Source: Rhina ancylostomus
Taxonomy: Eukaryota
Length of the DNA: 64,000 bases
NCBI GenBank assembly: GCA_030265395.1
Contig: JARFYF010000053.1
Location: forward strand, 36,939,321-37,003,320
Direction: 5' to 3'
Position numbers and translations under genes: made by a program. The notes below the pieces were generated by a model. The model made no database searches, was not told the DNA's origin, and saw only the letters and a list, made by a program, of their open reading frames with translations. Of the stretch, positions 8,296 to 54,914 are shown piece after piece. The number at the start of each line of letters is the position of its first letter. The stretch's first letter is position 1.

Positions 8296-8297
8296 CT

Positions 8298-8535
8298 GGC
8301 AATTTCATCCGATTATGGGCGGTGTTTACGGTCAATTCCATATGTAATCGAATGCGGTACGTGGAAATTTGTATTGCAATTCCACCATTCTATCTAAGAG
8401 ATGGGATTCATGCTCCAACTTCTCAGCTGCTACACAAATTCAGCTCTTTATGTATTGACCCATACTAAATTCAGGAAGGAACTGAAGAATATGATTAAAT
8501 ATCAGTGCAATCTAATAACAAACAGAATTCAGTGC
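8298..8535 (+). pseudogene. GPR139-like GPCR fragment (TM6-TM7 and C-terminus only)
   Basis: GNFIRLWAVFTV...EMGFMLQLLSCYTNSALYVLTHTKFRKELKNMIKY aligns with GNFILFWAPFTV...EIGFMFQMLSCCTNTALYTVTQTKF of the gene at 21205. The 5' part is replaced by CR1 sequence. Confidence 0.85.
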
Positions 8536-8979
8536 CGAAGGGAGTTCATGTATCCGCGGTGTTCAACGTACTGGCGCTCCTCTCAATCTTTTGGACCCTT
8601 CACTCACCCCACCCGAACCCCAGCCTCGCACTCACCTAGGTATTGTCAGAAAAGTCTGCTCAGTGATGATTCTTTGTGGCCTTAATGCCCTCCAGATAAA
8701 TGCAGCAATGTAATCCTAAATGATCGGAGGTATGGTCGCCTTTTTCAGTTATACCACACCGAAATATCCCTGAAGAACCTAACAATAATTCGGCATTTCA
8801 ACCTCACAAACTCAACCAAGTAGCAGTTCAATGATCAATCAGAGCAGAAAATGAAGTCCGGGAAAGAAAACACTGAAACGTAATGAAGCAATTCAGAAAC
8901 TTTTTCAAAGCAGTAAACCAGATTGGACATTTAAACAATTTAAAACATTCAGAACACCACCAACGTTCGAAATAATATA

Positions 8980-10230
8980 ACACTGAACATGCTTTAAGGA
9001 TTTGGTTACAATTCAGAAAATACTATGGTTTATTGAGATTTTCCTTGTCTAGTCACATTTTTGCTATTTTTTTCTTTAAACCTTCTATAACTGATATAGT
9101 TTTTAAAGAATGGGATAGATTGGGTATTACTCGTTTCCAGGATCTGTTTCCTGGAGGAAACTTCTGAACGTTTGAACAAATGGCGTCTAAGTATAATTTG
9201 CCAAAAAACTCACTTTTTTCGATATTTGCAAGTTAGATATTTTTTCCAGTCTCAGGTACCCACTTTCCTTATAATCCTGATAAGAACTTATTAGATACCA
9301 TTTTTAATTTGAAGCCTTTTTACGATGTTTCAATATCTAAGATTTATGTTAGATTATCAGGAATGAATAAGGTCTCTTTTAACAAAATTAAAAATGCTTG
9401 GGAACGCGATCTGCAGCTTTCAATTTCTGAGGAAACATGGAATCAAATTTTTAAACTAATTAATACTTCATCATTAAGTGCGCGTCACTCCCTCCGTGAA
9501 TTTAAAGTGGTCCATAGAGTCCACCTTTCCAACGACAAGTTATTGTGTTTCTATTCAGATATATCTCCATATTGTGACAAATGCAATAATGGAAAGGCCT
9601 CTTTAATCCATATGTTTTGGTCATGTCCGAGTTTGGATAAATTCTATATAGAAGTATTTCAAACTTTTTCCGTACCTTTTAAAATAAAATTTAAGCCAAA
9701 TCCTTTAACTGCATTATTTGGGATCGTTGGAGAAAAATATATAATTTTGGAGACATCCGACTTACACATATTGGCCTTCATTTCTCTTACAGCCAGGAGA
9801 GCTGTATTGCATAAATGGAAGGAAATTATTCCTCCCACTCATACTCAATGGTTATGGGATGTTATGTCATATTTAAATTTAGAGAAGATCCGTTGCTCTA
9901 TTTCTGGATTTATTTTGAACTTTCAAATATTATGGGGACCTTTTCTGAACTACTTTCAAAATCACTGATTTGGTGCTCACTGTACAGACATTGGCTAATA
10001 CTACTATGTTTTTATGATGTTATTAAACAGCGTTGGTTTTGGTAGTGAGGTTAGATTTTGTTTATAATAAAATTATTCCAACGTATTAATATCAATTGAT
10101 TTATTTTGCTTATCGATATGAAGCAATGTGATTTCTAATGTGATTCAGTATAATCTATTTTGTAATATTTTCCTCTCTTTCATGCATTTTGTACTTCTTA
10201 TTTGAAATTAATAAAAATATTGAAAGAAAT
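8980..10230 (+). mobile_element. L1/Tx1-type LINE 3' end (ORF2 C-terminal cysteine-rich zf-RVT region, ORF 9309-9968)
   Basis: AWERDLQ..W..FKVVHRVH..CDKC..ASLIHMFWSCPSL..ARRAVL.KWK..W..F is the L1 ORF2 C-terminal signature. It is followed by an AT-rich UTR, AATAAA at ~10210 and an A-rich tail. Confidence 0.85.
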
Positions 10231-10599
10231 AACATAACACACAAACACAAGAAAAATTGATAACTGTCACTCCCCAGCCATTAAGCAGGCCAAACAAACA
10301 CTGCAGATGGCAGAACTCTTTACAGTATAATTCAGAGTGTTATAGTAATAAAGCAGTAGAAATTAACAGTGCATACAGGTTCATTAAATAAAACACAATA
10401 TCATCTTCGTATCCTGGAACCAAATGTTTCTTCAATGATTAACGCATTAATATCCGCCTAAAATAGTAGGAAAGGACAAAAAATAAAAGATAATACTTAG
10501 GAAAATAATTCACTTGAAACATTCGGTGTCCACCACGTCCGGTCAAGTAACCTCCCCAAAAATTGCAATTCTTCAGATTTATTAACGACGTTGAAAGTA

Positions 10600-15265: not shown

Positions 15266-15370
15266 TTAAANNNNNNNNNNNNNNNNNNNNNNNNNNNNNN
15301 NNNNNNNNNNNNNNNNNNNNNNNNNNNNNNNNNNNNNNNNNNNNNNNNNNNNNNNNNNNNNNNNNNNNNN

Positions 15371-18180
15371 TAAGTGCTGTACAGTGACCATGTCTGGGGT
15401 GCCCTGTGTTGTAGTTGTTGACTTACAAGAAACCGCCTGTTTTCCTGCTATCGAAAAGATGTTATTACTCTGGTGAGCTGCCAATTTGGCCTCTGCATCT
15501 GCCTTGTTACTGCCCTGTGTTACCAGGGAGGTGTCTGAGAAGTGAGCTGAGCATTTTATGATGACCAATTTATTAGGGAGGAGGATGGCTTGGAGGAAGT
15601 TCTTTACGTAAGGCGCTTTCTGTATGGGACTAACTGTAGAGGGCAGAAATCCCCTGTGCGTCCATAGTTGGCCAAAATCATAGGCGACTCCAAAAGCATA
15701 GCGGGAATCAATAAAGATATCAGCTACTTTGCCCTTGCTAAAATACAAGCTCTGGTTAGGGGTAAGAGTTCTGCTTTTTGTTCAGAGACTGGGGTCTACA
15801 AAGACGACCTGGGAGTCATTTACAATGGCATAGCTGCAAAAGCGGATTTCCTGTTCATAAACGGTGGAACTACCACTGACATATAGGTTTAAGTCTGCTG
15901 ACTGTAAGGCCTTATCGGAAAAGTCCGGACGGAGTGCAGTCAAAAAATGGTTTCGCATTAAGCAGTCATGTGGTGGATCTTTAAGATCCTTAGGTGGGGT
16001 CTCTAGAAAGGTGGCAGGGTTAATGGTAGTGCAGTATGTAAAAGGGAGGAGTGATTTATTCAGGAGAGCTACCTTATTTCTGTTTAAGCGGGCCTGGGTA
16101 ATGTGTTGCGTTTGATGAGAAGTTAGGTGTGCCGTTACGGAATGGGAAGAATAAACAATCATTGATTGTTGCAGACTGCTGTTACCAGGGGGTAGATTGT
16201 TGGAAGCATCTGTGAGCACGGCGGAAGTCCCCTAGCAACCGGGTCCAGCCGAGTAGAGTAATATGCCACCGGTCTTTTTCTATCCCCTTGGGATTGAGTA
16301 AGGACGGTTGTAGCGCTGTCCGCCAGGACATTGACAAAAAGATGAAATTGACGATTTGATGTCCCAGGGCCGGCGCGCTGGCAAGGGTTTGTTTGAGTTT
16401 ATCAAAGGACTCCTTTTGTTCCTTTGTAAATTCTAAAGGTCCCACAGACTATCTTGAAGCCAGGGGCGTGAGGTGCTGAGTCAGGAGGGCCACATTAGGT
16501 AGCCATTGTCTGCAGAAATTTACTAAACCTAAGAAGGTGCACATACCCTTCGGTGTAGAGGGTGCTGGGCTAGCAATAATGGGTGTAATACGTTCAGGAG
16601 TGAACTGTCGCTCAGTTGCACTTAAAAGGGTGCCCAGAAGAGTCACCTGGCGTTGGGTTCGTTTTACTTTCTGTAGAGTTATTAAGTGTCCCCAAGAATG
16701 GAGTGCGTTAAGTAGTCTGTTGGTGTCGGCAATTTTGCTGGGCTCCGAGGGGCTTGCCAAAAAAAGGTCATCGACATGCTGGACAACGGTGGATTTGTCA
16801 AGAAGTGGTAACTCTTGGAGTTGTTTATGCAACACTTGGGAGAAAATAGTCAGGGAATGTATAAATCCTTGCGGGAGAAACATGCAGGTGTCTTGCTGAC
16901 CTTGGAAGGTGAAATCAAACAGGTACTGCGAGTCAGGAGATAGGGGAATTGCAAAAAAATGCATGCTGGAGGTCCCCAAGGGTAAAAATACAAGAGTCGC
17001 AGGGATAGTGCCGAGAATGGTGGCCGGGTTCGCAGCCAGAGGGTGCAGTGGTTCCACTAAATCATTAACCTTACACAGGTCTTGTCCCAGGCGCCATTCC
17101 GTCCGTCCGGGTTTGGGGATGGGTAAAATCTGGGTGTTGCAGGGTAATTGGGAAGGAACCAGGATGCCCTGTTTGCAGAATGAATTTATTAAATGGGTTA
17201 TTCCGTCAACCGCCTCTCTCCGAAGGGGGAATAGTGGGACGGAAGGCGATTGTACTCCCAGTCTTACCCGGAGTTGGAATTGGCTCACAGGGGTGATCTC
17301 TCAATCATCTTTCTACGTTGCCCATAATTCGGGGGTTGGTTCATCCGAAGGCAGTCCGTGGGGCTGATGGTGCCATAAACAGCCTGTCACCTAAAAATGC
17401 GTGAGGTGATAAGTCAGGGTCTCTCCTGGCAGTATCTGGGAAACCCCGGAAAGGTCTTTGTCTACCTGTTCCTCAAGTTGATGGGCTAGGAATCCCAGCT
17501 ACTTCGGTTTATGACCCTCATCAACTGACAGGGTGATGTGAGGGGACACCAAGCCTGACTGATTCCACAATTCATTAGACGGTTGAAGTCAAAGTGCTGC
17601 ACCCTCCTTCCCCTCTACTTCTCCCAAACTGTAATAGTCTCCATGCTACCCAGGTAGAGAGCATACAAAGCTTACAGCTCCCATGAAACCCCTGAGGGGT
17701 ATAAACTAGTGTCACATTTGGGTCAGGGGCCTTCAAGGATTGGTTAAAATCTCAGTTCTTGAAGTCCACCGTCCACCACTGAGGAGGCTGTTGAATCCAG
17801 AGGATTCCATGGGGATTAGGGCCGTTAATGGTAATTACTTCATCCAGGCATTGTATTTGATTCGGAGGAACAGAGCAAGTCCCTCCCGGGCAAGTTAACC
17901 CCAAGGTCTGGGGTTACTGCGATTTGGATCAGACATTCCTGCTCTCCGAATCCCCCTCGTAGAGGTTCAGTTAATGGGTAGGACTTCTAATGCCCCTCAA
18001 GTCCGCTCAATGAAACCGTGGCCATGGAAATTTTAAAATAATGCTGGGCGATACAAGGAGCTTCAAGCATCGAGGTACAGGCCCACGTATCTATCTTAAA
18101 GGGGATTAGTTTTCCTTCAACTAATAGGTTGACGATAGGTTCATCGTCTGGGTTATCGGTGAGTGCAGGGTATATGGAAT
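15371..18180 (-). pseudogene. pol: ERV pro-pol (protease, 2H-like insert, RT, tether, RNase H)
   Basis: Protease EPIVNLLVEGKLIPFKIDTWACTS (DTG>DTW at 18083-18091). RT PCNTQILPIPKPG..WRL.QDL, LPQGFIHS, QHVDDL and FLGLVNFCRQW. RNase H LYVSGSS, IFIDSRYAFGVAYDFGQLW.HRGFL, IIKCSAH and GSNKADAEAK. Confidence 0.92.
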
Positions 18181-18199
18181 GGCTACATTCCGTAGCTAA

Positions 18200-20320
18200 T
18201 CAGGCGGAAAACAGGTTGCCGGTTGAGAAAGGTTATCGTTTACCGGGGGTGGGAGTCTGGCCGACCGCTGACAGTGGGGCAGTCCCGCTTCCAATGATCA
18301 GATGCTCCACAGAGGTAGCATCCTGTCAAACTGGCGCTCGCTGGCGCGGGTCGGGTTGATAGGGCACCCTAGGTCCTGGGGAATTGCGAGAGGNNNNNNN
18401 NNNACATTGGGGCTCTTGGTCGTTGGGGTGTATTGGGTACCCTTTACCAGATTGATCAACCCGTTCTGGAATGTATTCTGGCGGGGCGGTAGCATAGCGG
18501 TTAGCGCGACGCTATTACAGCGCCAGCGATCGGGGTTCGATTCCCGTCGCTGTCCATAAGGAGTTTGTATGTTCTTCCGTGTCTCCGTGGGTTTCCTTCG
18601 GGTGCTCTGATTCCATCCCACATTCGAACGACATACGGGTAGGTTAATATGGGTTTAAATTCAGCGGCGCATACTCTTTAGGCCGAAAGGGCTTGTTACC
18701 ACGCCGTAAATAAAACTGAAAAAAAGTATTAAATTTGAATACAAAACTGTATTATTGGCTAAAGCAGGTCGGGGCCGAGGAGATCTATGAACCATTCTGG
18801 TTTTCGATTCGCGCCGGTTACTCCAGAAGTAGACCAGCGGCCTCCTCATCGCCTGTCGCGTGTGGTCAGGCCAATTCATGTTATTAGTGCGGATAGCTGA
18901 CGCCACTTCCTCAGGGATACATTGTAGTAGGAGGGCGTTAAACTGAGGGAAGGCTTTGGCTCTGTCCCCCGCATAAGTACCGTAAAGTGAACAGAAGTGG
19001 TACCAATAGTCTGGGCCGTCCTTTCCCTGTTTCGGTTGGAATTCTAAAACTTTAGTTATGTCAATAGGCTGTTGGAGGGTTTTGCCAATGGCAGTTCTAA
19101 TGGTTTTCAACTGGTCCTGAGGCCGGACGGCCTCTTAAAAAGTTCACCAATCTGCATGGTTTCCCACGTGTTTTTCCAACTTCCCGCCTTATTAGTTGTA
19201 GGAGCCATATAACAAAGACTGTAAAGGTCTTAGGGTGTGGCCTGGTACATCTGAATTGTCCCAATCACATAATCTATAAAATCTTCCGGTTTGGTGTTAC
19301 GATTGAGCGCCTGGTTGATGATTAGGCACATCTCCTGAGACTTCCAAGGGATGTAGATTTGGATCGTAGGATTAGTGCTCGCTTGGGCTGGATCTGATTA
19401 TGGAACACTCCTATCGGGGAACTGTCTTTTAGCCTTGGTTCCCTTTCATTCAACAAAAGTGATGGGTCGGGATCTTAAGGGCCGTCAACATCAGTGGTAG
19501 AATCGGAGTCATATCGGTGTCCGACTGAGGATCTACTTAATGTCTGTCCCCTACCGAAAAGTTCCGTCGCTTGTCTGTGGCAGAGCCATTCGTATGCGGG
19601 CTTCCTCGCTGTGTAAGCTGATTTCTAGTTCCGGACGCAGTAGGGTCATGGGATTGGCCTTGGGACGGGACTTAGCTCGCAGTCGTTGGTGGTGAGACCG
19701 AACGGTTTGCAGACGACTTACATTATGTGGGGGCGGCAGTGAAATTGGGGGTAGATAGGGGCTGTAGGTCGAACCATTCAATCCTCCTTATTTTCGTCCT
19801 TATCATTAATTTGGAGAAACAGGGGTACGCCAGACATGTCGGGAGGTACCTCCACTTTATCCTTAATTTCTCTATTTTTATTTCTTCGTTTTTCCCTTTT
19901 TCCTGATCTACCCATTCCCTCTCCCTTCTCCTTCTCTCAGCATCATGTTCTCCACACTGAGACTTCAGAACTTTCCAACTATTGGGATTTCCTCTTTCAT
20001 CACATAAACTAATCTCCTTTCTACGTGCATTATGTTCCTAACTACTCTGTTTAGATTTATTTATCAGGTCTTCAGCTGTTTTTCTCCAATTAGGCATTAA
20101 TATTTTCCATTTTCCCCTGCTTTGCGCTCCCAAATCGCCTTTTCTGCCTTTAGACACATCCACATCCCAACTTCCCCCGAATGGCCATATTTCATTTCCC
20201 AATTTCTTATTGAGGCATTCCGATAATTTACGGAAATTATTCTCATTTTTTTCGGGTCGTTTTTACATAATTTAGACAGTGGGGTATTGGATCCTGATTT
20301 ATCGAGAGTTTGTCCAATTT
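18200..20320 (-). pseudogene. gag: ERV gag (MA-CA-NC), disrupted and interrupted by a SINE
   Basis: Starts (M>I)GQTLDKSGSNTPL, with MA-like WPFGGSWD and a capsid-like region (ORF 18661-19110). The zinc knuckle CYLCGASDHWKRDC is at 18279-18320. Confidence 0.8.
18483..18740 (+). mobile_element. tRNA-derived V-SINE (HE1-like) inserted in ERV gag
   Basis: A-box-like tagcatagcgg, B box ggttcgattcc (18534-18544), V-domain aaggagtttgtatgttct..gtgggtttcc..gggtgctc..cccacattc, CR1-like tail ggccgaaagggcttgtt and an A-rich end. Confidence 0.88.
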
Positions 20321-20751
20321 TTCGACCTTAAAGTAAAAATCGCCACAATTATCTATAAGATCGGTCTCTTCCCTCACTAATTCCAGGTTCCTGACCTTCC
20401 CATGGGGGATTTCCTCTCTTAAGAACCGGTATGAGGTAGGGTGGTAGTACGAGGAACCGATCTCAAAATTTAAAGCTCAAAACCTTAAAATTCAAAACCT
20501 TAAAACCCACACCTGGGGACTCAAACTTCTTTATGTTATTACTCCGAGCGAGGACTCGAACCTCCTATTTTCTGTGGCACTCAGACATGTTCGCGAGGAG
20601 TCCGGCAGAGGATATTAGATAAGCGAAGAGATCGATCAGGTGTCCAACTCCCTGAAAGGGATCAAGATGAGTCTTACATTTTGGGCCGTTCCATCTTGGA
20701 TAGTCGTTATCCCCGTCGATCGGTCACGCCACTTCCGAGACCTCGTCTTGA

Positions 20752-20769
20752 CTCCTGGCTAGCTCGCCA
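20752..20769 (-). promoter_or_regulatory. Primer binding site complementary to tRNA-Arg(ACG)
   Basis: Minus strand TGGCGAGCTAGCCAGGAG lies 3 nt after the LTR's CA end. It has one mismatch to the complement of the vertebrate tRNA-Arg(ACG) 3' end CTCCTGGCTGGCTCGCCA (recalled, not searched). Confidence 0.85.
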
Positions 20770-20772
20770 AAT

Positions 20773-21170: not shown

Positions 21171-21204
21171 AGGTGAGGGAAAGACGTTGTTTCGGCGACT
21201 GCTT

Positions 21205-22106
21205 TCAGAATTGAATGCATTTTGCCATTAGTATGAAAGGAGACTTCATCAGTTCTTTCATTTGATCCCAAAACTTAGTTTGGGTCACGGTGTAAAGAGC
21301 AGTATTTGTGCAGCAGCTCAACATCTGGAACATGAAGCCTATTTCTTGTATAGAACGTGGTGGAAGAGCAGGACCGTAACCCAAATAATAAAGTAGGATC
21401 CAAAGATTTGACACCGTAAATGGTGCCCAAAACAGGATAAAATTCCCAGAAATGACAAGCAGTAAAATAAGGGATTTCTTTCGGCTTTCCATCTCTGTGT
21501 CTTTGGAAGTTTCACCATTGTTTGGGTTCCGGAGTCTCCTGCGAGCTCTGCTGGCCAGCAAAACATGTCTGATGGTTATCGCATTGAGAAGCAGAACCAA
21601 GATAAATGGGACCACAGGTGTGAAGAGATAATGAAGGAAAACAATTGCTGCCCAGACCGGTGATAGTAGAGAACGGACTCCTTGTAAACAAAACCAAGGA
21701 CTATTGCTCATCTTATATTCATTTTTGAGCATAAAGTACCAGAAAATATTCTTTAAGCAGCTCAGGACTGACACTATCGCCAACACCACAAGTGCCCTTT
21801 TCTCTGTGCAGTGGGTATTTTTCAGTTTCTGCCAACAAATAGCCACAAAGTGATCAAAGGTGAACGTCACGGTGAACCAGACAGAACAGTCCGTGGCTGC
21901 ATAAAGGAGGACGGCGTGGATGTTGCACACACGAAGAGAATGCAGTAAAGGAACCGGAATCTGATAAGCGATTGGAATATGCCTCAGTATCAGGTCGAGT
22001 GTAACTATCAAAAGATCCGAGGCTGCCATGGCAATTAGGTAGCGAGTGACTCCTTTGGAGAGCCCGCACTTTCCTCGAGATAGGATCCGAATCGTCACTA
22101 AGTTCA
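21205..22106 (-). CDS. GPR139/GPR142-like class A GPCR, gene A, exon 2 (rest of TM1 to C-terminus)
   Basis: Open frame VNLVTIRILSRGKCGLSKGVTRYLIAMAASDLL..DCSVWFTVTFTFDHFVAIC..TPVVPF..ESRKKS..CCTNTALY. Acceptor cttgcag|TG at 22107/22106. Joined to exon 1 it gives 1041 nt = 346 aa. Confidence 0.9.
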
Positions 22107-22341
22107 CTGCAAGTGTAGTGATGGGTAAAGTAACAGGAATTAAAAAACTGGTTTGGATGAAAATTACCAGACAGTTTGACATGGACATTATTGACATTTG
22201 CAAACATATTTTATATCTAGTAACATCATAAAATGGATTGTAAATTTACGTAATTTCCAGCCTAAAACTCGGATTATGAATTCATGAAATGAACCGGTCA
22301 ATGGAATTACCTCCTGGAATAAAAAAAATCACAATTAGGTA

Positions 22342-22620
22342 ATTAGGTAGCGAGTAACACATTTGGAGAACCCGCACTTTCCTCGAGATAGGATCACAAT
22401 CGTTATTAAATTCATTTCAGGTGATTGGGATGGGTGAAAATAAAACAGAGGAAATACAAATCTGTGTCGGAAGAACGTTACTGTTTTGACTTGGAAATTA
22501 TTGGCAATTGCAACTGTATTTTGTATCTCGTAAACGCCATAAGATTGATTGTACATATATGTCGTTTCGTGCCCAGGACTTGCATTATTACTTCATGAAA
22601 TGAACCAGTTAAAAATACAC
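22342..22620 (-). repeat. Intronic tandem duplicate of the intron end and exon 2 start of gene A
   Basis: Aligns with ~22030-22310 and encodes NLITIVILSRGKCGFSKCVTRYLI before breaking off. The acceptor gcag|tg reads gaaa|tg in this copy. Confidence 0.85.
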
Positions 22621-25771: not shown

Positions 25772-25910
25772 CAGGAATAGCAATAATGGCAAGGACGGGG
25801 TAATACACGGGTTGAATAGTCCAGAGTGCATAACAGAACCGCCTGTCTAAAGAAAAACGATAATGAAGTTCAGAGAACACATCAAAAGCCCAGAAGATAT
25901 TCTGACCCAT
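25772..25910 (-). CDS. GPR139-like GPCR gene A, exon 1
   Basis: MGQNIFWAFDVFSELHYRFSLDRRFCYALWTIQPVYYPVLAIIAIP, then G|gtaagt (consensus phase-1 donor). The 139 nt are in frame with exon 2 (G+TG = Val). The start ATG is the least certain part. Confidence 0.82.
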
Positions 25911-26639
25911 TGCTTTTATATTCAAGATTCTGCTGAGCCAGCTTCCTCTCTGAGGAAAAGTTGATCTCCGTCGGTGGCGATAGTGATTCACTGCCAGACA
26001 CTTTGCGAAAACTCTTTGAAATAAACCACATATTAATAGAAGAGGGCAAGCCTCTGGGGACTCAAGCAGCCTCTGTGGAAACTGACAATAATTGCAGGCA
26101 CTATGCAAATAGCTTCAGTTAACTCCTTCTTCACCATGTGTTGTTGATTTGAACAAGATATAAACCAGACCAGGCGGAGACTGTTGGTGTCTTTGTGAGG
26201 AAGACCGGTGGAAAAAGCGAAATTTCTAACCATAATAGATTAGTTTATATCGGGGATGGGACTTGTATTTGATGACTAGAGACTTGCAGCTGATGTTTTC
26301 TGTTTTACCTGACGGATGGGCCAACCGCATAACTGTTCTAATATCTTGCTCTTCTTATGTTGGTGAAGATTTAATAGCGATGATCGAGGAAGACAAGAAC
26401 TGTTACATGTGAAATAATGAAGACAGAGACTGAAATAGAACAGAAATCATTATTGGAATTCAGTCAAGCCAGATCGAGTTCTTAGATTACAGATGCAGTT
26501 GACCATTGATAAAACAAAGTTTATGTGTCTGGTCTTTCAAACTTTATTTTTCCATACACCACCTGTGGGTATAAGAACATTCAAACTATGGAAATGGAAG
26601 GGCCTGGCAGCAAAATTGAAACTTTGCCGAAGTGATCGA

Positions 26640-29316: not shown

Positions 29317-29320
29317 AAAT

Positions 29321-29465: not shown

Positions 29466-32400
29466 ATGGATCTTGATGCATTTTTGAAATTGCCAAGCCC
29501 TGTGGGATTGCAGGAGGCAAGTAAGGCAGAGTTGTTGAGCAGTGCTAAAAAGTTAAGACTTGAAGCATCACAGTGGTCTATGAGAAAGGCAAACATTCGG
29601 AGAATGATAGCTGAATATAATGTGGCTGAGGAGGTGTTTGAGGAGACCAAGTTATAACAACTTCCTGAGAGTAAACCTGAGACCTCTGATGCCCAGGTGA
29701 AGCTGTCACAGACGCAATTTGAACCAATGAAGCTAGAGATAGAGTCTGAGCAAGAATAAAAGAAGCTGCAGATAAAAGCTGACCTGGAACTGAATCGGCA
29801 GGCGGCGGAGAAACAGGAGAAATAGCGGTGGCATGAGTTGGAAATGATAAAATTTGGGGGTTCTGTTTCTGGTCCTGGTGGTGCCTTTATAGCCAGTAGG
29901 GATGTTTAATTATTCCCTCCGTTTGAGGAGGATCAGGTTGATCAGTATATTCAACATTTTGAAAAAGTTACTGAGAGTTCAAAGTGGCCACGGGAGCGTT
30001 GTCTCTTGTGTTGCAAATTGGGATTAAAGGTAAAGCTCAACAAGCTTATTATGCCCTATACGTTAATGAAGCAGCTAACTATGAGATAGTAAAACATGCT
30101 GTGCTTAAAGCCTATGAATTGACTCCCGAAGCTTATAGACAAAAGTATAAAAATCTGTAAACCAGGGTTATATGGAATTTTCTAATGAAAAAGACTGTGT
30201 TTTGAACGATGGTACACGTCTAACAATGTAAATGACAATTATAACAGATAGAAAGAATTGAGTTTAGAGGAAGAGTTCAAAAGGTGTGACTTACAAACAT
30301 TTAAATGAGAAGGAAGTGGTAACTTTGCAAGAAACTGATAAGTTAGCAGATGAGTTTGCTTTAACCCACAGGTTTAAGTTGGGATAAACTAAGACCTTAA
30401 ATATGAATAATCCTGCTAAATCAGAAATCAAATTGGGAAGTAGTGTCAAGGGGAAAATGATCGGAAGCAAGTATCAGAGAAACCTGCTTATCGTACTTGT
30501 TATTATTGTAAGAAACCCGATCATGTGTTAGCGAATTGTTCCCTCCTGAAGAAAAAGAAAGGAAAGGAGGCACTGCCAGACGCTTGTTTGAAAAAAAAAG
30601 TTGAAACAACTGAAAACTAAAAGGGTTATGGACATGCTGATATATCTGAACCCTTGGACAGAGTTAGGAATGAATTCCGTTCTTTTGTGTCAGAGGGTTT
30701 GTTCTCAGTGAAAGATGGGTCACCTCTGGTGCCAGTGAAAATCCTTCGAGATACTGGGGCCTCCCAGTCCCTCTTGTTAGAGAGTGTTTTAAAATTTGCT
30801 AATGATAAAGCCACTGGGGAGGTAAATCTGTTTCTAGGCATTTCAGATGACATTGTGTCTGTACCTCTGCACAAGGTAATTTTGAGGTCAGAGTTAGTAG
30901 GAGGAACTATTAAGATAAGACTCCGACCTAGCGAAAGGAGTTTCTTTGCTATTACGGAATGACCGTTTCGGTGGTAATTTTGTCCCTGCGGTGCAGCTAA
31001 CAACCAAACCAATTATTAATGAGTCAAAGATCGATTCAGATGTTTATCCGTCCTGTGCAGTGACTCGAGCTATGGATAAGAAACTGGTCAATGCGGATGG
31101 TCCTGTGCAGCCTGAGTTTGTTCCCTGTGACAACCCAAAACGAGATTCAAGTTCTGATTACATGTCAGAGATTTGTCTTTCTTCACTTGTGGACCAAAGT
31201 CCGTGTGTTGAGTCCGAGTGTAAAGATTTATATTTATCCAGAAAAGAGTTTATAACGGAGCAGATCTAAGACACTGAGCTCACTGCGTTGAGAGAAAAAG
31301 CTCTCTCAAGTGATGAGATTGAGGAAGTGCCTGTTGGATATAATTTTAAAAATGGAGCGTTGATGAGGAAGTGGAGACCTCCTCGTATTCCTGTTAGTGA
31401 GGAATGGACAGTTGTTTACCAATTTGTGGTTCCAAAAATTTATAGAATTGAGATTCTAAGCCTGGCCCATAGTATGCCCTTAGGCGTTCACATTGGTGTG
31501 AACAAGACTGTAAAGAAGGTTATGAAACAATTATTTTGGCCTGGTGTGAGAAAAAATGTTGTGACATTTTGTAGGATGTGTCACGAATGTCAGATTGTAG
31601 GTAAACCTAATCAGAGTCCCCTTGCAGCTCCATTGCAGCTTATTCCTGCATTTGGTGTACTCTTTTCAAAAAGGTAATTGTAGATTGATTTCGCCCATTG
31701 CCAAAGTCTAAGGCTGGGAATCAGTATTTATTAACTATCATGTGTAAAACCTCTAGATTTACAGTAACAATACCATTCAGCAATATTAAAGCCAAAACCG
31801 TATCAAAGGCTCTTATAAATGTTTTCAACTTAGTAGGTTTGCCTAAAATATCCATAGTGGTCAAGGGAGTAATTTTATGTCAGGACTATTTCAACAGGTA
31901 GTTTATGAGCTGGAAGCTAAGCAGATTATATCTTCTTCGTACCATGAAGGAACACAAGGGACCGTAGAAAGGTTCCATTCGAGACTCAAATCATGATGAG
32001 AAGATTTTTTTTTGGGAAAGTCAAGGATTGGGATGAGGGAGTTCATTTGCTTTTGTTTGGAGGAAGGGAGTTAGTGCAAATATCCCTAGGTTTCAGTCCA
32101 TTTGAACTTGTGTTTGGATATCAGGTTAGAGGATCTTCAGTGTTATTAAAGAACAGTGTTTTAATCAAAACAAGCATTTGAATTTGTTCGGCTGTGTTCT
32201 GAAATTAAAAACAACGATTGAAGAGAACGTTCCAGTTAGCAAGGGTAATTTAAAAAGCTACACAGCTACCGGGAATGACACGTGGGAAGCTCATATCTCT
32301 GCGTTGGAAAAATTATTTGAAAAACTCTCCAAAGCTAATCTTACAGTTAATTTGGCTAAGAATTTGACAATGCCACTGTGACCTATCTTGGTTACGTAAT

Positions 32401-33033
32401 AGGTCAAGGCAGGTTAGCTCCTGTTCAGGCAAAAGTTCACCCAATCTCTGAATTTCCCATGCCAAAGGGGTACGAGAACTGTTACAAGATTTCTGATATA
32501 GTTGCATATTATCGCAGCTTATGCAGGAATTTTGCTGATATTGCTCTTCCTTTAACTAATCATTTTTAGAAGGGTGTGAAGCTTGGACAAAGCCTTGTCA
32601 GGAAGCATTAGAGATATTGAAAACTATTTTATGTCACCAACCCGTGCTCAAATCACCTGACTGTGAAAAGCCATTTTGATTAGCAGTAGATGCCAGTGAT
32701 GAAGCTGCGGGAGCAGTGTTATTACAGAAGGATGTCTATGATGGTATTGACCATCCTGTAGCTTATTTTTCAAAGAGGTTTCCTGAGAATCAAAAGAATT
32801 ATTCCACCATAGACAAAGAATTATTGTCGCTTATGATGTTTATGTTTGCACAGCTCAGAAACCACTTGCTGTGTTTACAGATCACTACCAACTGTTTTTT
32901 TGAACAGGTTGAAGAAAAGAACAGAAGATTGTTAAAATGGGGTTTAATTTTGCAAGGTTATGATTTCATGATAACTCACATTAAAGGCAAAGATAAAATA
33001 ATTGTCCATTGTCTTTCCAGATACCAAGTTTGA
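29466..33033 (+). pseudogene. gag-pol of the Gmr1-like element, fragmented, with most of RT deleted
   Basis: ORF pieces 29466-29657, 30654-30962, 31288-31677, 31698-31901, 31993-32181, 32378-32569 and 32716-33033 form a collinear polyprotein. Confidence 0.85.
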
Positions 33034-33780: not shown

Positions 33781-33783
33781 AAG

Positions 33784-34413
33784 ATGGTTCTGAGTTCTGG
33801 CCCTCAATTTGGCTCCATTAATGCCTTGTTGTCCAGCACATGGATTCCCTGCTGGGCTGATAAGATAACAATACACAACTGAGCCCCATCAGGGGCCTAG
33901 CATAAGAACCTGTGTTTCTCTGGCACTAGTTGCCAGCGTAATGGTTTACCTTTAGGTATACTTTGGTTCCAGATGCGAAGAATAGGTTTACTCTAGAGCA
34001 GTCCTGTGTTCTCTATTCCATTCTGAAGATCCAGTTCGTGTTGGGATTCCTCTTCTGATCTCTGAGGCAAGAGGCCTTCCAGTTACTGCTTGTGTTTGTA
34101 CTGAGGAAGTATCCTGACTCCAGTCTTGTATCAGTGTGCCGAATTTGAGTTCTCTGTGAGTTTGCTCCGGATCAACATAGTGACAGAAGACTCTGGCCCT
34201 TACTGCAACTGTTGGGCAGCTCAGTGAACAGGTCAGNNNNNNNNNNNNNNNNNNNNNNNNNNNNNNNNNNNNNNNNNNNNNNNNNNNNNNNNNNNNNNNN
34301 NNNNNNNNNNNNNNNNNNNNNNNNNNNNNNNNNNNNGTATCCTGACTCCAGTCTTGTATCAGTGTGCCGCATTTGGGTTCTCTGTGAGTTTGCTCTGGAT
34401 CAACTTTGTGACA
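33784..34413. repeat. Unclassified interspersed repeat with internal tandem subunits, copy 1
   Basis: Closely similar to 43802-44339 with the same ends (atggttctgagttctggccctc ... tgtgaca). Confidence 0.8.
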
Positions 34414-34831
34414 ACTTCTGCTGCCAGCACTCAATGGGAAGAAACCCAATAATAATATCTTTTATTGTAGGAAAAAAATCTATTGACAATTAAGAGCAGA
34501 ACTCATATTCAACCCAACCGTTGCAATATAATTAATTCACAAACGTTGGTACATGAAAATGAACATTGAATCTCCTCAAATCTTATCGACGGTGTCACGT
34601 AGTCAAAGCAATACCTGGCCACATGGTTCAGAAAAATAATTCAGCGCTTCGGTAAATTCCTGCGCTTGGGTCTTTGTCAATAGTCAATAAGTTCCATTAA
34701 AAGAAAGTGGTAATTCAATGGCTGATCAGAATGTGAGTCATGACTGCAAGGCTATTCAACAAAAGCAGTCACAGAGTGAAACAAGCAACGAGCGAACACG
34801 CAGAATTACAAATATGCTAGAAGCTATTTAC

Positions 34832-34898
34832 TAGGGGTTCCAATAACGGCAATAATCATGTAATATATTTTCCTGGCACTGGTAGAAGTCTCCAGCAT
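34832..34898 (-). other. Orphan GPR139-like first coding exon (MLETSTSARKIYYMIIAVIGTP)
   Basis: 67 nt with a phase-1 donor A|gtaaat. Length and pattern match exon 1 of gene B (MLVTFNSVKKLYYLMLAIMGIP). No dedicated exon 2 is seen. Confidence 0.75.
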
Positions 34899-34981
34899 TT
34901 CCTTCTGTAGTGGCGCGTTCTTTCGTGATGCACACAAAAGGGCATTTAAACAAACGAAAATAGACGATCCCAATGCCCTTA

Positions 34982-34988
34982 CTTTATA
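34982..34988 (-). promoter_or_regulatory. Putative TATA box (TATAAAG) of the orphan exon
   Basis: About 85 nt upstream of the ATG at 34898. Based on motif and position only. Confidence 0.35.
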
Positions 34989-35979
34989 TGCTGTACGACG
35001 TCCACAGGGATATTGAATTTGCACCACCATTCAAATGAGGTATATTTTAAGCACTTTCCCATTACTTAATGAGGAGAACTGAATTAAATCCCGGGTGCGA
35101 TGACATTATTTTCGTGTGAGATTGAAATTGAATTAGTCCAAATACGCCATCATTCTGATCAAATTTCGTTATATTTTGCCATATGTCAATGTCGGCATCG
35201 AAAGAAAGGACGGCGTTTATTGTTCACTGCGATTAATTCGTGAACCGAGTGGATTTCTAGACCTTGTTAGACTCAATTAAATAATTATATCGTACATGTT
35301 TCTCTATATCTCCGTTATAAACCTATTGTGCCCCATGATTAACAAACACACTTATGCTAATTTACTGTTTATCCTTGAAAGTCATATTAGGTTAACACTT
35401 TTGATAAATCCTTCCTTCTCTGGATTCGATTCCTCCTGAAGTGCCGTTACCACACTTAGATATAATAATTCAGTGGTGGACCAGCCAATGTTTTATCAAC
35501 TTTCAAATAACTTTCTCGGTTCTGAATACTGGGCCTCGAATTCTGAAGTGCCGGATCCAGTTATGGTTCACTATTTCTTCGTTATTTCCATCATTCGCCA
35601 CTTCCAATGGTTTATGCAAATATACATTTACCCACAGATGTCCTGTTCGTCAAACACACACGACATCCTATTTCTAAAGACGCGTGAGACTGTAACCTTC
35701 AGTATTGACTCTATGCTGCTTTTCTTTTCACTGAATTGCATTGGAAAATACGCTTTAGTTATAAATTTAATCTTCCCGTCTGCCAGAAGCTGATAAGACA
35801 AACGGATGGCAAGAACCAAATGGTCACCAACTCTTTTTTTTAAATGAGCTAACTACAGGGATAGCAAACGCTCTGGTTATCGTCACCCAAACGTCTATGC
35901 ATTCATTTTCCCCTGGATTAGACTGCAGTAAATATGAATCATCAATCCTGAAAAGGAGAGGAAAAAAGATAGGTAGCTT

Positions 35980-38640: not shown

Positions 38641-39455
38641 TGGATTATTTGTACTGTAGACATGCTAAACCCTGCCTCAATTAGAAATCTCTGCGGTGAG
38701 TTTTCAGATATGTCTGAAGATCAGGAACTTGATGGACATGTAAACTGCTTAGGCCACAAACGGAATTCTGCACTCTGAAATTCTCCGTACTAACCCAGAC
38801 TCTCTGCATAATGATTGCTGTACCAGATTGAGCTAAATGCAATGCAAGCACGGGTTCACTGGGTAGCTCTCAGGGGAACACATGGGGGGGAGGGCAATAC
38901 CTCACACATACAGACTCCTTGTGTAATTAACAGGACCAGAAACTTTAGTTCATTTCCGNNNNNNNNNNNNNNNNNNNNNNNNNNNNNNNNNNNNNNNNNN
39001 NNNNNNNNNNNNNNNNNNNNNNNNNNNNNNNNNNNNNNNNNNNNNNNNNNNNNNNNNNNNNNNNNNNNNNNNNNNNNNNNNNNNNNNNNNNNNNNNNNNN
39101 NNNNNNNNNNNNNNNNNNNNNNNNNNNNNNNNNNNNNNNNNNNNNNNNNNNNNNNNNNNNNNNNNNNNNNNNNNNNNNNNNNNNNNNNNNNNNNNNNNNN
39201 NNNNNNNNNNNNNNNNNNNNNNNNNNNNNNNNNNNNNNNNNNNNNNNNNNNNNNNNNNNNNNNNNNNNNNNNNNNNNNNNNNNNNNNNNNNNNNNNNNNN
39301 NNNNNNNNNNNNNNNNNNNNNNNNNNNNNNNNNNNNNNNNNNNNNNNNNNNNNNNNNNNNNNNNNNNNNNNNNNNNNNNNNNNNNNNNNNNNNNNNNNNN
39401 NNNNNNNNNNNNNNNNNNNNNNNNNNNNNNNNNNNNNNNNNNNNNNNNNNNNNNT

Positions 39456-40200
39456 TTCCAAAGGAATCACCCACTACCTGTTGGACATGGCAGCTGCGGA
39501 TCTACTTGCCATTGTTCTTGACCTCCTCCTGAGGCAGATTTTAATCAGCTATTGGGAACAGTTTATTTTCTTGCAGGCCATTCTTCTGTGTCATGTCCAC
39601 ACTGCATTCCTTAATGCAGCCACTGACTGTTCGGTCTGGTTCGCCGTCGCTCTTTAGCTTTGATCGATTTGTAGCTGTGTGTTCACAGAGATGTAAATAT
39701 TGTACTGAGGATACAGCCGCAGCGATTCTGGTGACAGGGACTGTGCTGAGCTCTCTGGTTTTGTACCGAAAGAGACGGTATTTTGAATTCACTAATCGGA
39801 GCAACGATAGAGTTCTTTCATTATCTCCTCACCCCGGGGCTCCCATTTGTTTTTCAGTTGTTGCTTAATGCATTAACTGCAAGACATGTAGTGGTGACCA
39901 GCAGACCCAAAACCCCTGAAACTGAGAGCCGAAAGAAATCCATCATTTTATTGCTGCCAATCTCTCGCAATTTCCTCGTGTCATGGGAGCTAGTTATTCT
40001 GTATTCCATATGGAACCGATTGAGATAGTTGCTATATCGCTTTGCGAATCCACCAACATCTCTGTAGGAAATATATTTCATGCTTCAGTTGCTATGCTGC
40101 AGCAGAACCATTGCTCTTTACACTGTTCCCCAAGAGAAATTCCCAGAACAGCTGCAGGATGTGCTGAAGTACCCCTTCAACCTGATTGTAAATTGCACTA
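39456..40200 (+). pseudogene. GPR139-like GPCR pseudogene (exon 2; 5' end lies in the gap)
   Basis: SKGITHYLLDMAAADLL..AATDCSVWFAV / FSFDRFVAVC..KYCTE / EFFHYLLTPGLPF..ESRKKSIILLL / MLQLLCCSRTIALY..KYPF, broken by frameshifts, a stop and deletions. Confidence 0.9.
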
Positions 40201-43801: not shown

Positions 43802-44339
43802 ATGGTTCTGAGTTCTGGCCCTCAATTTGGCTCCATTAATGCCTTGTTGTCCAGGACATGGATTCCATGCTGGACCGATTGGATAACAATACACACCTGA
43901 GCCCCATCAGGGGCCTAGCAGAAGAACCTGTGTTTCTCTGGCATTAGTTGCCAGAGTATTGGTCTACCTTTAGGTATACTTTGGTTCCATTTGCTTAGAG
44001 TGGGTTTACTCTAGAGCAGTCCTGTGTTCTCTATTCCTTTGTGAAGATCCAGTTCGTGTTGGGATTCCTCTTCTGATCTNNNNNNNNNNNNNNNNNNNNN
44101 NNNNNNNNNNNNNNNNNNNNNNNNNNNNNNNNNNNNNNNNNNNNNNNNNNNNNNNNNNNNNNNNNNNNNNNNNNNNNNNTGAAGATCCAGTTCGTGTTGG
44201 GATTCCTCTTCTGATCTCCGAGGCAAGATTCCTTCCAGTTACTGCCTGCGTTTGTCTTGAGGAAGTATCCTGACTCCAGTCTTCTATTGGTGTGCCGCAT
44301 TCGGGTTCTCTGAGTTTGCTCTTGATCAACATTGTGACA
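43802..44339. repeat. Unclassified interspersed repeat, copy 2
   Basis: Matches 33784-34413. The subunit gaagatccagttcgtgttgggattcctcttctgatct occurs on both sides of the gap. Confidence 0.8.
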
Positions 44340-45829
44340 CATTTAGTCCCTTTTGCCTAGAAAACAGGTTAACTATGAGCTCCCAGTTGTGGATCACAGT
44401 TCTGTGATTAGGAATTACATTTTCAGACATTACATTGTCTGCTCGTTATGTTGTGGTCTTGTACTATCAGGCTGTCCACTGATTTTTTGGTAACTCAGTC
44501 TGTTCACTCGCGTAGGCATGCAATATCTTCAAAGATGACACTTCTGAGTGGATATAAGAAGCTGTCGATGTTAGGTGTTGTTGTCGCGGGCTTATATGTC
44601 TTTTTTTACTAGATTGACGACATCATACCTCTAGAGCTTGCCCACAGGAGAAGTAGTAGATCACGGTTATAGGATTTTGTTGTCCACGATAACTGGCCCC
44701 AGTGATTCGCGACGTGAGTCCAAAGTGAAATGGACATTAGGAACTTGCAAGCTCTCTCGATAGTCCTATAACTGCTGTGTTGAGAATGAAACGTCCAAGT
44801 TCCCGTTCCATCGGATATGATGGAACAAGCTTACTCTTGATCTAATATCACAGTCTCAGGGAATCGAATGTCCTTTAATGCCTTGATTAATTCTGGCCAC
44901 AAAAGTTCTGCTCGTGGTCTCATTTTTTTGTCTCAGAGATGGTATTTAGGAGCAAATAGCCTTTGAAATTCCATGTTTAATACAATCTGTGGTTGACCTG
45001 TTGATATCGAAACCCACAGTTGCCTCATGATGCTGCTGGTTAAGTTCATACTCAGCCAATTTTTTTTGTAACCCACCCCTAGCACAGTCTCTGAGACTGC
45101 AGAAGAATTCATGACATTAAAATATAGTGCAGTCAGTGGTCCCGAACAATGCAATATACTTAAGCAGCTGAATGGCTTTTGGGAATTCCTAATTGGCAAG
45201 TTCCGGTGATGAATATCATCGCCTGAATGGCCTCCACCTGACATGTTATCTCAAGCTCGTGATAGATCTTCAAATTTCCCATTTGACAAATTCTCGTGGA
45301 TGAATAATGACTTTTGATTCAGCATCTCCGAATCAGAGTGGTCCATGTGTCTTTAATAATCTCCATTATTGGGTGAATATCTCTGACCAAGTGCCTGCGT
45401 CTAGATGTTGATACTTCGGGGTGGAGATCTCAATGTACAGTTCCTATTCAACCAGCCCCGGTAATGAATGCCCACTAAATGTTCCAGTCTCTCAGAACAG
45501 GGAGTTTTTCAATGACTTTCAACTAAACTATAATGTTCAACAGAGTAAATAGAGAAAGAGAGAGGGGACTTTAAACGAAAGCGTGGGACGAAGAGAAATG
45601 CAAATGTTAAGGTTCGCAGGGTGACCGGCAGCAAAAAGAGAATACTAAGGAAGAAAAAAAAAGCGAGCACTACCTGAAAGTGATGGCGATAAAATACCTT
45701 AGATGCGTCAGGAAGTGGCGGAGTTCCTGAACGAAAATTTGATCGTGAGACAAAGAGGGCAATGGTGCAGAAACGTTGACTGGTCGAGAAATGTTGAAAG
45801 TACAAAGACAATAAAATGTTGTTTCTGAA

Positions 45830-47930: not shown

Positions 47931-48703
47931 TGTTTCTGTGTTCTTTGGAGAGTGTACATATAAGTCCGTGTCAAGACGTAGACTTAAAATTTAACTTCCA
48001 TCGATGTTCAGATAGTCGCTGTCAAAGATAGTGAGTCTGGTGTGTTGTTTCCTTTGTGGGGCGGATTCAGATAAAACTTGTATTGTCGGCGCACATTGGA
48101 GGAGACCAATTGGTTTGAGAGACAGATTCTGTTTGTCTCTCTACTTTCTAAGGGATCTCTCTCATCTTCATTGCCTCTGTAGAGATGGAAGTTTGATTCT
48201 ATTTTATAATCATTTCTCCCAACCCTGGTTGAAAATAAAGCTCTTCTGAACTGCCTTGTTGACCAGTGAACAGATTCACTTTCCACAGAGGTCCCAACGT
48301 TAGGTGAACACTTAACTATTTCAAACTCCGTTATTTAATGAGCTTAATGAGTACAAAAGAATGATGTAACCATCGATTTGTTAAGGATGAAGAGAGAACA
48401 TTAATGTGAAGGTAATAAAACTCCGAATACTGAATGAATATTTCATTAAATAATGCGAGCGAATTCGTATAATGTTGGATCTTTCATTTCAGTCTCAGAA
48501 CTGAATATTTTCTATCGCAGCAGGGATTTAATAGGTTGTCGTAATCAGTTTGCTCAACATCTAAAATTAGATCGAGGAAGATGCCGCAACGCCCAGTGGA
48601 GATATTGCAGGCGATAAATTAATCGTTTCAACCTGGCGTTAGGGAGGGGTTCGCTCAGAAACACCATCTTCACTATCAAGGAACACATCTGTTTAGATCG
48701 ATA

Positions 48704-48770
48704 ATGCTTGTTACATTTAACAGTGTCAAGAAATTATACTACTTGATGCTTGCCATCATGGGTATTCCTG
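48704..48770 (+). CDS. GPR139-like GPCR gene B, exon 1
   Basis: The ATG at 48704 gives MLVTFNSVKKLYYLMLAIMGIP, then G|gtaagt (consensus donor). The 67 nt are in frame with exon 2 (G+TA = Val). Confidence 0.85.
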
Positions 48771-52980: not shown

Positions 52981-54003
52981 TCTGTGATCCATGATTTAAT
53001 CCTTCTTTGATCACACCGTCCTCGGTCTCTTGACTGTTCAATTTTACTTCCCTATTCCATTCCCCGGCATTCTTATTTGAAATAATCTGTCTATGGTCTT
53101 TGTATCGCAGGTAAAGCCATCATGGATTATCCATTCCTAAATGCCCTTGAACAGATCGCTGATTGCTTGAACATCCGCAATCGTTCTGGTGAAGATATTT
53201 CATCAGTTCTGTTGTTCAGGGAATTCCCGGAATTGGACTCAACAGTGGTGAAAAACTAGTAATGTATTTTGAAGGCAGGAATGTACGTAATTTGGAGTAA
53301 AATGCAAGTATTGGTGACTCGTGTACATGTTGTCCTGGCTCTTTGTTGTCGGAGAGATTGTTCCACTTGAGTTGGCTTTTGGAGGGGCCTGGGCGAGTAA
53401 CAGCACGCATTTTGCATTTGGTACATACTGCAGCCACTTTACGCAGGTTATGTGGTTGATGGGGTGCAAATCAAATGAAGTCCTTTGTTCCGGATCGTCC
53501 CGATCACTTTGATAATTGTTGCAAAACTCCCGTTCTGGGAAGGGTTGAATCACATTCGTTCATCTCAACAAGGAAGCAGATTTGACGAATTCAGGAAGTC
53601 AGTCACTTGCTGCAGGAGACACAGACTCCGACGTTAACCATGGCCACCAGGTAGCGAGTGCTTTGCCCTATGCTCGGTACTAATCCAATCTAGCCGCTCA
53701 ATATTGTACTGGGAAAATTTAGACTTACTCAGCTCAGATTTAGAGCGGGAGGAATGTATTAAGTAATGATAAATGTAGCGCCTAACATTGTATTTTAACA
53801 GTTTTTAAAATCACTTGGAAGAGGTTGGCTTTTATTTATTAGTTCACATTCGTCCCACTTCCATTGATACTCCTTTGAGTCTGGTTTTATATTGTTAACT
53901 ACGGAAAATTCTCTCTATAACCCAGTCTTTGCTGTATGGGGTAAGATACGAGACTGTTTGATCAGTAATATCATTTATTTTCTTCTTTTGTTTAATTTTG
54001 CAG

Positions 54004-54914
54004 TAAATTTAGTGGCGATTGTGATCCTATCCCGAGGTAAATGTGGACTCTCATCGTGCACCACTCGCTACCTGGTGGCCATGGCAGCTGCTGATCTGCT
54101 GACCATAATTACTGAGGTCTTTCTCTGGAGGATCAGTTATTATTACTTTCCAGGAACATTCCTCGAGATCACCCCAGTGTGCAGTATTATCCTTGTCCTG
54201 AGTCGTGCATGCACCAATTCCTCTGTTTGGTTCACTGTCGCCTTCACCTTTGATCGATTTGTTGCCATTTGTTGCCAGAAACTGAAACTGAAATACTGCA
54301 CCGAGGAAACTGCAACTGTGGTTCTGGGAACAGTAGGTTCTCTGCTCTTCGTAAAAAACATACCCTGGTACTTTACTCTGAAGTCTTGGACAATAATTGA
54401 CAATGTACCGTGGGGCTGTTACAATAAGCCAAGTTATTATTATGAGCCGGGCTGGGTGGGATTTGACTGGTTTGACACAGTTTTAACTCCTTTTGTCCCG
54501 TTTGCTTTAATCTTGTTGTTCAACGCTCTGACAGTCAGACATATTTTAGTGGCCAGCCAAGTGCGCAAAGGGCTAAAGGGCCAAAGCAATGCGGAGAATC
54601 GCAATGACCCGGAGTTGGAGAGTAGGAAGAGGTCTATAATTTTGCTCTTCGCTCTATCCGGTAGCTTCATACTATTGTGGCTGGTATATGTTCTTTATTT
54701 CATATATTATACAATTACAGGGAAAGATCGCAGTGATTATAACGAATCAGAATATATATTCCGGCAAGCTGGAACTTTGCTCCTGAATTTAAATTGTTGC
54801 ACAAACACATTTGTGTATGGAGTGACCCAATCCAAATTCAGGGAAGAGCTAAAGAATGGGGTGAAATATCCAATCATTTGGATTGTTCATTTAATTAATA
54901 AACAGCGCAACTAA
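54004..54914 (+). CDS. GPR139/GPR142-like class A GPCR, gene B, exon 2
   Basis: Polypyrimidine tract and ttttgcag|TA acceptor. Open frame VNLVAIVILSRGKCGLSSCTTRYLVAMAAADLL..SVWFTVAFTFDRFVAIC..KYCTE..TPFVPF..ESRKRS..CCTNTFVY. Joined CDS is 978 nt = 325 aa. Confidence 0.93.

Follow-up and report, generated by a model that had tools for sequence, protein, structure and literature searches.

A cluster of genes for class A G protein-coupled receptors (GPCRs) lies in the stretch of DNA analyzed here, the 64,000 nucleotides of Rhina ancylostomus contig JARFYF010000053.1 at C53:36,939,321-37,003,320 ("the window"). These receptors belong to an old and very large expansion, in chondrichthyans, of a lineage that is related to GPR139 but separate from it, with continual birth and death of copies. 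Two genes in the window, A and B, have open frames and share one layout: exon 1 is short and ends in a phase-1 GT donor, and exon 2 is long and begins just before N1.50 (Ballesteros-Weinstein numbers were assigned in this analysis from anchor residues). The gene pieces, with the means by which each was recognized, are as follows (TM, transmembrane helix; ICL and ECL, intracellular and extracellular loop).

8295..8532, plus strand: 3' remnant of an A-like copy, TM6 to helix 8, with one frameshift and one stop (tblastn, three-frame view)
21205..22106, minus strand: gene A exon 2, from 1.49 in TM1 to the stop, an open frame with R3.50H (tblastn, Pfam)
22338..22612, minus strand: partial duplicate covering the end of the intron and the start of exon 2, within the gene A intron (blastn, 75% identity)
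25772..25910, minus strand: gene A exon 1, 46 codons plus 1 base, phase-1 GT donor (exon-1 profile scan)
34832..34898, minus strand: orphan B-like exon 1, phase-1 GT donor (exon-1 profile scan)
39457..40196, plus strand: exon 2 of an A-like pseudogene, broken by frameshifts and stops and with a deletion in ICL3 (tblastn, three-frame view)
48704..48770, plus strand: gene B exon 1, 22 codons plus 1 base, phase-1 GT donor (exon-1 profile scan)
54004..54914, plus strand: gene B exon 2, an intact seven-helix class A receptor (DRF, W6.48, NTxxY, TM3-ECL2 cysteines)
60361..63016, plus strand: diverged copy of the gene B intron (blastn, 67-75% identity)

An initial annotation, made from the letters of the window, had described five copies here. 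Its two open-frame genes, two pseudogenes and orphan exon are all found, and every motif it quoted is present at the expected place, but it missed a sixth fragment (22338-22612). Both of the copies it called intact do have open frames, except that gene A reads DHF, not DRF. The phase-1 intron that it placed inside TM1 is seen in all three first exons of the window (A, B and the orphan), each of which has its phase-1 GT donor within TM1. The start codon of gene A is taken from the open frame. The duplicate piece in the gene A intron has no AG acceptor in its acceptor context, and the 5' end of the A-like pseudogene falls in an N gap (38959-39454). No exon 2 matching the orphan exon 1 lies between it and gene A; downstream of it are an N gap and a long terminal repeat (LTR)-type element. 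The copied B intron at 60361..63016 is likely part of a broken duplicate of B, the exon 2 of which begins ~0.8 kb past the window end, where protein search of the genome finds a split match (C53:37004128-37005030). The region as a whole is rich in gaps and repeats. Genes A and B are 45% identical, and each matches Pfam 7tm_1 alone; the two divergent types of the initial annotation are real, but they are only two among many subfamilies.

Within the 2.2-Gb genome the family numbers in the hundreds. Three protein searches of the genome gave at least 131, at least 133 and at least 118 matches. A census was then made with three exact degenerate motifs, in ICL1, TM3 and TM7, with the reversed motifs as controls. 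The motifs match 534, 596 and 760 times, respectively, and the controls 1, 0 and 49 times. Of 82 intact copies that protein search had recovered independently, the ICL1 motif detects 44; of 109 intact copies, the TM3 motif detects 82 and the TM7 motif 70. Combining match counts with these detection rates yields ~990, ~790 and ~1,110 loci. Thus, the family has at least 596 copies, and its size is estimated at about 800-1,100 loci. The intact fraction comes from the first 100 listed ICL1 matches, which lie on the lowest-numbered contigs only: 84 were fetched (27 intact, 35 broken, 19 that gaps made impossible to assess and 3 that did not extend to a longer match), and the other 16, at loci already analyzed, include 15 intact copies and 1 fragment. 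With 42 of 100 intact, there are, as a rough figure, ~400 intact second exons genome-wide. In all, 109 distinct intact exon-2 frames were retrieved, with a median identity of 49% and no pair above 90%. The lack of near-identical pairs counts against haplotype duplicates, and haplotype duplication is rejected as the source of the copies. A confident first exon (ATG plus the same donor) is present in 63 of the 80 genes whose upstream 10 kb was examined. Birth-and-death expansion, suggested initially for the cluster in the window, is supported by the genome-wide counts (534-760 motif matches, 42 of the first 100 listed intact).

The copies are concentrated near scaffold ends. Of 94 motif matches on 16 large scaffolds, 62 are in the terminal 2 Mb (9.6 expected), distributed over 12 of these scaffolds; the matches are clustered and hence not independent, the ends are not shown to be telomeres, and the count omits six matches (five on small contigs and one on a scaffold of then unknown length). 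Scaffolds with end-proximal clusters are C2, C12, C22, C46, C50, C53-C57, C60 and C62.

The encoded proteins have the hallmarks of class A GPCRs: seven helices, D2.50, a DRY-like motif, NxxY and the TM3-ECL2 cysteines, with gene A deviating at R3.50. An AlphaFold model of gene B exon 2 has a mean predicted local distance difference test (pLDDT) score of 87.9. Foldseek with this model matches a broad range of class A receptors, GPR139 ranking third, and the fold search does not discriminate among them. By sequence, GPR139 is the best solved-structure match (PDB search, E=5e-9), and no known olfactory or taste receptor is among the 7 PDB matches. The sequences do not fall in the OR (olfactory receptor), TAAR, V1R, V2R or T2R families; PF00001 is the only Pfam match at E up to 0.01. 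The H at 3.50 of gene A (DHF for DRF) is the sole case among the 109 intact copies. Its closest paralogue retains R3.50, and the pair differs at a proportion of 0.055 of nonsynonymous sites (pN) versus 0.18 of synonymous sites (pS). Gene A, with its unique R3.50H, may not signal; the change is probably recent and probably impairs signalling. Among the first exons L183-L262, those of type A encode longer and more variable N-termini, up to ~55 residues, than those of type B, ~22.

The nearest protein to gene B, from an electric ray, is 85% identical to it, and a protein of the chimaera Callorhinchus is 51% identical; family members occur in sharks, rays and a chimaera. A protein database search returned 2,675 clusters. 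Among the best 120, all named rows are sharks and rays, and nearly all of these named rows are labelled "probable GPR139", an automatic label that has concealed the family. The genome's own GPR139 (L061) is a separate gene, 25% identical to gene B. The genome also has a GPR142-like gene (L076, a name given by inference) and two further single-copy relatives, L063 and L064. The acceptor of the phase-1 intron just before N1.50 is at the same place in GPR139, L063, L064 and the family.

In a careful tree of 28 rows, the family is one clade (support 100/99), and its sister (100/99) is a gene found in salamander, frog and sturgeon. Family and sister gene make up one part of a three-part group (100/98), the L063 and L064 lineages being the other two; GPR139 and GPR142 stand apart from it. 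A quick tree of 68 rows concurs, with shark and ray sequences intermixed within subfamilies. Invertebrate relatives fall just outside the clade. The approximately unbiased (AU) test rejects one clade with GPR139/GPR142 (p=0.000156) and orthology to L063 and its coelacanth counterpart (p=0.0006). Orthology to GPR139 is likewise rejected, by the AU test and by the separate orthologues in the genome. Thus, the initial annotation was right that these are not GPR139 orthologues, and the phylogeny that it had called for places the family outside the GPR139/GPR142 clade.

The amphibian/sturgeon sister gene is low-copy, with about one cluster per amphibian species among the 25 matches listed, and could serve as a proxy for the ancestral state. 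Five of its proteins were tabulated; all have N rather than D at 2.50 and keep a GPR139-like pocket. The amphibian/sturgeon proteins P0230 and P0393-P0412 are good candidates for finding the ancestral ligand. L063 (C53:27.24 Mb) is conserved as a single copy from sharks to lizards and turtles, with W6.48 replaced in the lineage; two database models of it are named TMEM183A, which hints at that neighbour. L064 (C2:82.06 Mb) groups with an anchovy protein. Rinne et al. 2019 (PMC6504862) describes an orphan with three subtypes beside GPR139/142, named GPR210A/B. The sister orphan is probably one "GPR210" subtype, and the present three-part group probably the group of that survey; the name is inferred, since Ensembl identifiers in PMC6504862 cannot be linked to the proteins found here.

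Activation of GPR139 by Trp/Phe depends on four residues (PMC5430874), compared here as F3.33, H5.42 (also given as H5.43), W6.48 and N7.39 (also given as N7.38). Among the 109 copies, F3.33 is present in 25, H5.42 in 38, W6.48 in 106 and N7.39 in 9; at position 6.51, where GPR139 has R, most copies have Y or F. Gene B keeps one of the four and carries R3.33, D5.42, T7.39 and Y6.51. Gene A keeps two and has Y for F, type A being Y3.33, H5.42, W6.48. The amphibian sister gene resembles GPR139 in having F3.33, W6.48, a basic residue at 6.51 and N7.39. Pocket positions 3.29, 3.32, 7.32 and 7.35 are among the most variable in the family (entropy >3 bits). Since the Trp/Phe pocket of GPR139 is mostly not kept, W6.48 alone being general, the term "amino-acid receptor" applied in the initial annotation is unsupported.

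Selection was analyzed with our own codon model, whose M0 likelihood reproduces that of IQ-TREE, with branch lengths fixed up to scale. The sample consists of 27 genes from the clade around A and 32 from the clade around B, 59 of the 109 intact copies. Overall omega (the dN/dS ratio) is 0.37 in clade A and 0.33 in clade B. Adding a class with omega>1 improves the fit by a 2dlnL (twice the log-likelihood difference) of 146 in clade A and 88 in clade B, whereas 16 null simulations (8 per clade) give at most 3.8. With columns near gaps removed, 2dlnL is still 124 (A) and 81.5 (B). Sites selected with posterior >0.9 are extracellular in clade A (15 of 122, versus 0 of 161 intracellular; p=2e-6) and nearly so in clade B (13 of 125 versus 1 of 161; p=1e-4), with one more in the C-tail of clade B. 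Over both clades, selected sites number 28 of 247 extracellular positions versus 1 of 322 intracellular. The inner TM region has an omega of ~0.15. The receptors are thus under purifying selection inside and positive selection on the extracellular face, and the pattern of conserved intracellular and variable extracellular parts reported initially holds over all 109 intact copies. Pocket positions follow the canonical list from class A structures. The selected sites of clade B include 3.29, 3.32, 6.51, 7.35, 7.36 and 7.39, and mean omega in its pocket is 0.93 versus 0.41 at other outer TM sites (p=0.02). The diversified ligand-facing side expected from the window is therefore seen in both clades, with a bias to the pocket in clade B but to the loops in clade A.

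The three first exons of the window are each preceded by a putative promoter, predicted from motifs only.

25911..26070, minus strand: putative promoter of gene A, with an O/E-like site ~150 bp and a TATA-like site ~128 bp before the ATG
34899..35110, minus strand: putative promoter of the orphan exon, with TATAAA at -90 and an O/E-like site at -112
48500..48703, plus strand: putative promoter of gene B, with a GGGATTTAA element, an O/E-like site at -114 and a TATA-like site near -90

Across the family, 66 regions upstream of first exons contain 48 TATA sites, versus 10.9 in shuffled sequence, and 39 of these are 50-100 bp upstream of the ATG. An O/E(EBF)-like site, defined by an O/E consensus with up to 3 mismatches, precedes the TATA by 15-45 bp in 21 of 55 anchored promoters, versus 1-6 in control windows. 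An O/E consensus and a TATA are features of mouse OR promoters (PMC3247239). The consensus as published there is found with <=1 mismatch in 12 of 66 promoters versus 2 of 62 regions farther upstream (shuffles 2.4), and with <=2 mismatches in 48 of 66 versus 30 of 62 (shuffles 28). Three motifs that were chosen after seeing the data are also enriched: forkhead-like (58 versus 32), GGGATT-like (25 versus 7) and TGA(C/T)GTAA-like (27 versus 5.5).

The orphan exon is preceded by a TATA and an O/E-like site of its own and shares phase and strand with gene A exon 2, 12.7 kb downstream; for these reasons it could be a candidate alternative first exon for gene A. Between the orphan exon and gene A, at 30600-33030 on the plus strand, is a broken LTR-type element with an integrase zinc-finger match, which may have displaced exon 2 of the orphan exon's gene. 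A second broken retroelement, with Pfam RVT_1 and a weak RNase H match, lies between the 3' remnant and gene A (15269-19134, minus strand) and looks retrovirus-like by eye. One short repeated element borders 100-N gaps at both 33990-34490 and 43970-44360. Within the gene B intron, 53638-53660 is an exact 23-base antisense copy of exon-2 sequence 54062-54084.

Published surveys credit cartilaginous fishes with a few dozen chemoreceptor genes: 6-13 OR, 3-5 TAAR, 2-4 ORA and 8-43 V2R (Syed et al. 2023, PMC10116579). In the catshark, seven receptor probes together label ~12.6 cells per mm in a neuron layer that is almost continuous (PMC10116579). Many catshark olfactory neurons would therefore appear to have no known receptor. 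Tan et al. 2021 (PMC8455134) reports a "paucity" of GPCRs in cartilaginous fishes, which ~400 intact members of this family contradict, whatever their function; the same paper reports MAS-related receptors to be absent from these fishes. In the accessible portion of Mayeur et al. 2024, "GPR" does not occur and no GPCR is among the top 50 genes of a brain plus olfactory library. The family is not treated in the accessible parts of PMC12294341, PMC13113109 and PMC12946260, and its name is absent from supplements of PMC13188829, PMC8455134 (12 of 24 files), PMC10529500 and PMC11806052. No published description of the family was found by a search that left most subscription journals and some supplements outside. 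RNA reads of a related species (80% likeness, tissue unspecified) cover intron and exon equally and on both strands, with no exon 1-exon 2 joint, and weigh neither way.

On balance, the evidence slightly favours a chemosensory repertoire as the candidate role of the family. In every receptor, a shared half facing the G protein would be combined with a ligand-facing half that positive selection has diversified; each copy would bind different water-borne small molecules or peptides, and all would signal via one common G-protein pathway. Sensory neurons, with olfactory ones the most plausible, would be where the TATA and O/E-like promoter is active. The repertoire would be renewed as copies duplicate locally and decay, a process of which the window, with B intact, A probably impaired and four remnants, is a snapshot. 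A narrower proposal, which we hold tentatively and put somewhat short of even, is that cartilaginous fishes independently recruited a GPR139-related orphan for olfaction, adding to the vertebrate olfactory receptor families one that has several hundred intact genes. The OR-like O/E and TATA promoters would then be convergent, and the receptors would fill the neurons that V2R, TAAR and ORA leave unexplained. If so, the family would show that a vertebrate chemoreceptor repertoire has arisen independently once more, would bear on the old puzzle of a large nose with few receptors and no ciliated neurons, and would overturn the idea that shark olfaction relies on a few dozen receptors.

Several observations weigh against these proposals. 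The codon models take no account of gene conversion, and in clade A, where the selected sites are in loops, the pocket evolves no faster than other outer TM sites (p=0.99). The promoters are related by descent, so their motif counts are not independent, and only 1 of 66 has a perfect published O/E consensus. A second mark of OR promoters is the Lhx2-type homeodomain site, and TAAT(T/G)(A/G) sites of this type are not enriched (65 versus 54 +/- 7, shuffle maximum 68-70). EBF factors are active also in B cells and other neurons, and the forkhead-like, GGGATT and TGA(C/T)GTAA motifs, equally enriched, do not point to the nose. The family promoter thus looks conserved and compact but only half OR-like, with TATA and O/E-like sites enriched, Lhx2-type sites not, and other motifs enriched as well. 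In the catshark, moreover, every olfactory neuron is microvillous and positive for TRPC2 and Go, and ORs are not expressed in these cells (PMC10116579); an OR-like promoter need not mean activity in neurons where ORs themselves are unexpressed. The evolutionary signature is, finally, one that immune receptor families also show.

This last point leads to the foremost alternative, an innate-immune or barrier repertoire on leukocytes, gut or skin cells that senses peptides and metabolites of microbes or parasites, much as the FPR or MRGPR expansions do. Strong positive selection on the exposed loops of clade A fits an arms race, and the heavy pseudogene turnover is in keeping with such a role; the EBF-like and forkhead-like motifs are compatible with B-lineage or epithelial cells, and the reported absence of MAS-related receptors (PMC8455134) leaves that role open. 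We nevertheless regard it as doubtful. Immune GPCR expansions usually consist of tens of genes, not several hundred, and the family name is unmatched in one nurse-shark spleen supplement file, a weak point, as that file does not hold the marker tables. Detection of endogenous peptides or of pheromone-like social cues in brain, endocrine tissue or reproductive tract would extend the neuropeptide-receptor-like ancestry of the GPR139 group. It draws on the nearest folds, which are peptide receptors and GPR139, on the invertebrate relatives just outside the clade and on the GPR139-like F3.33, W6.48, basic 6.51 and N7.39 of the amphibian sister, but receptors for endogenous ligands are normally few and conserved. 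With pocket positions 3.29, 3.32, 7.32 and 7.35 highly variable and at least half of the loci broken, we consider it unlikely.

The narrower label of the initial annotation, expanded aromatic amino-acid receptors with GPR139 pharmacology retained, is very improbable. GPR139 is the best solved-structure match (E=5e-9), the TM1 intron position is common to both, and type A retains Y3.33, H5.42 and W6.48. However, identity to the genome's GPR139 is only 25%, the AU test rejects one clade, N7.39 is present in 9 of 109 copies, 6.51 is mostly Y/F, and gene B has R3.33, D5.42, T7.39 and Y6.51. Neutral duplication debris or an assembly artefact, which the broken third or more of sampled matches and the gaps and repeats of the region might suggest, is already largely refuted and scarcely credible: inner TM omega is ~0.15, no intact pair among 109 exceeds 90% identity, splice sites and promoters are conserved, and subfamilies are common to sharks and rays.

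Like the OR, TAAR, V1R-ORA, V2R and T2R families, the one described here is a large clustered repertoire with a high pseudogene share and extracellular positive selection; unlike them, it matches only Pfam 7tm_1, has one intron in the coding region and is not enriched in Lhx2-type sites. TATA and O/E-like sites are shared with mouse OR promoters (PMC3247239). With the immune or nociceptive expansions of FPR and MRGPR it has in common birth-and-death clusters and a fast-evolving outer face, but it belongs to a different receptor branch and has a far larger copy number. It is in the same wider receptor group as GPR139 and GPR142, with the same phase-1 intron, W6.48 and the best PDB match, but it is 25% identical, is rejected as a single clade with them, has variable pocket residues and coexists with a true GPR139 and a GPR142-like gene elsewhere in the genome; a TM3 cysteine present in 108 of 109 copies is lacking in GPR139. 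The GPR210A/B survey (PMC6504862), in whose accessible text "shark" and "cartilag" have 0 occurrences, is without shark data and does not report such an expansion. As in that survey, three vertebrate orphan lineages stand beside GPR139/142 in the present tree: L063 and L064, each single-copy here, and a third that consists of the amphibian/sturgeon gene and the expanded family.

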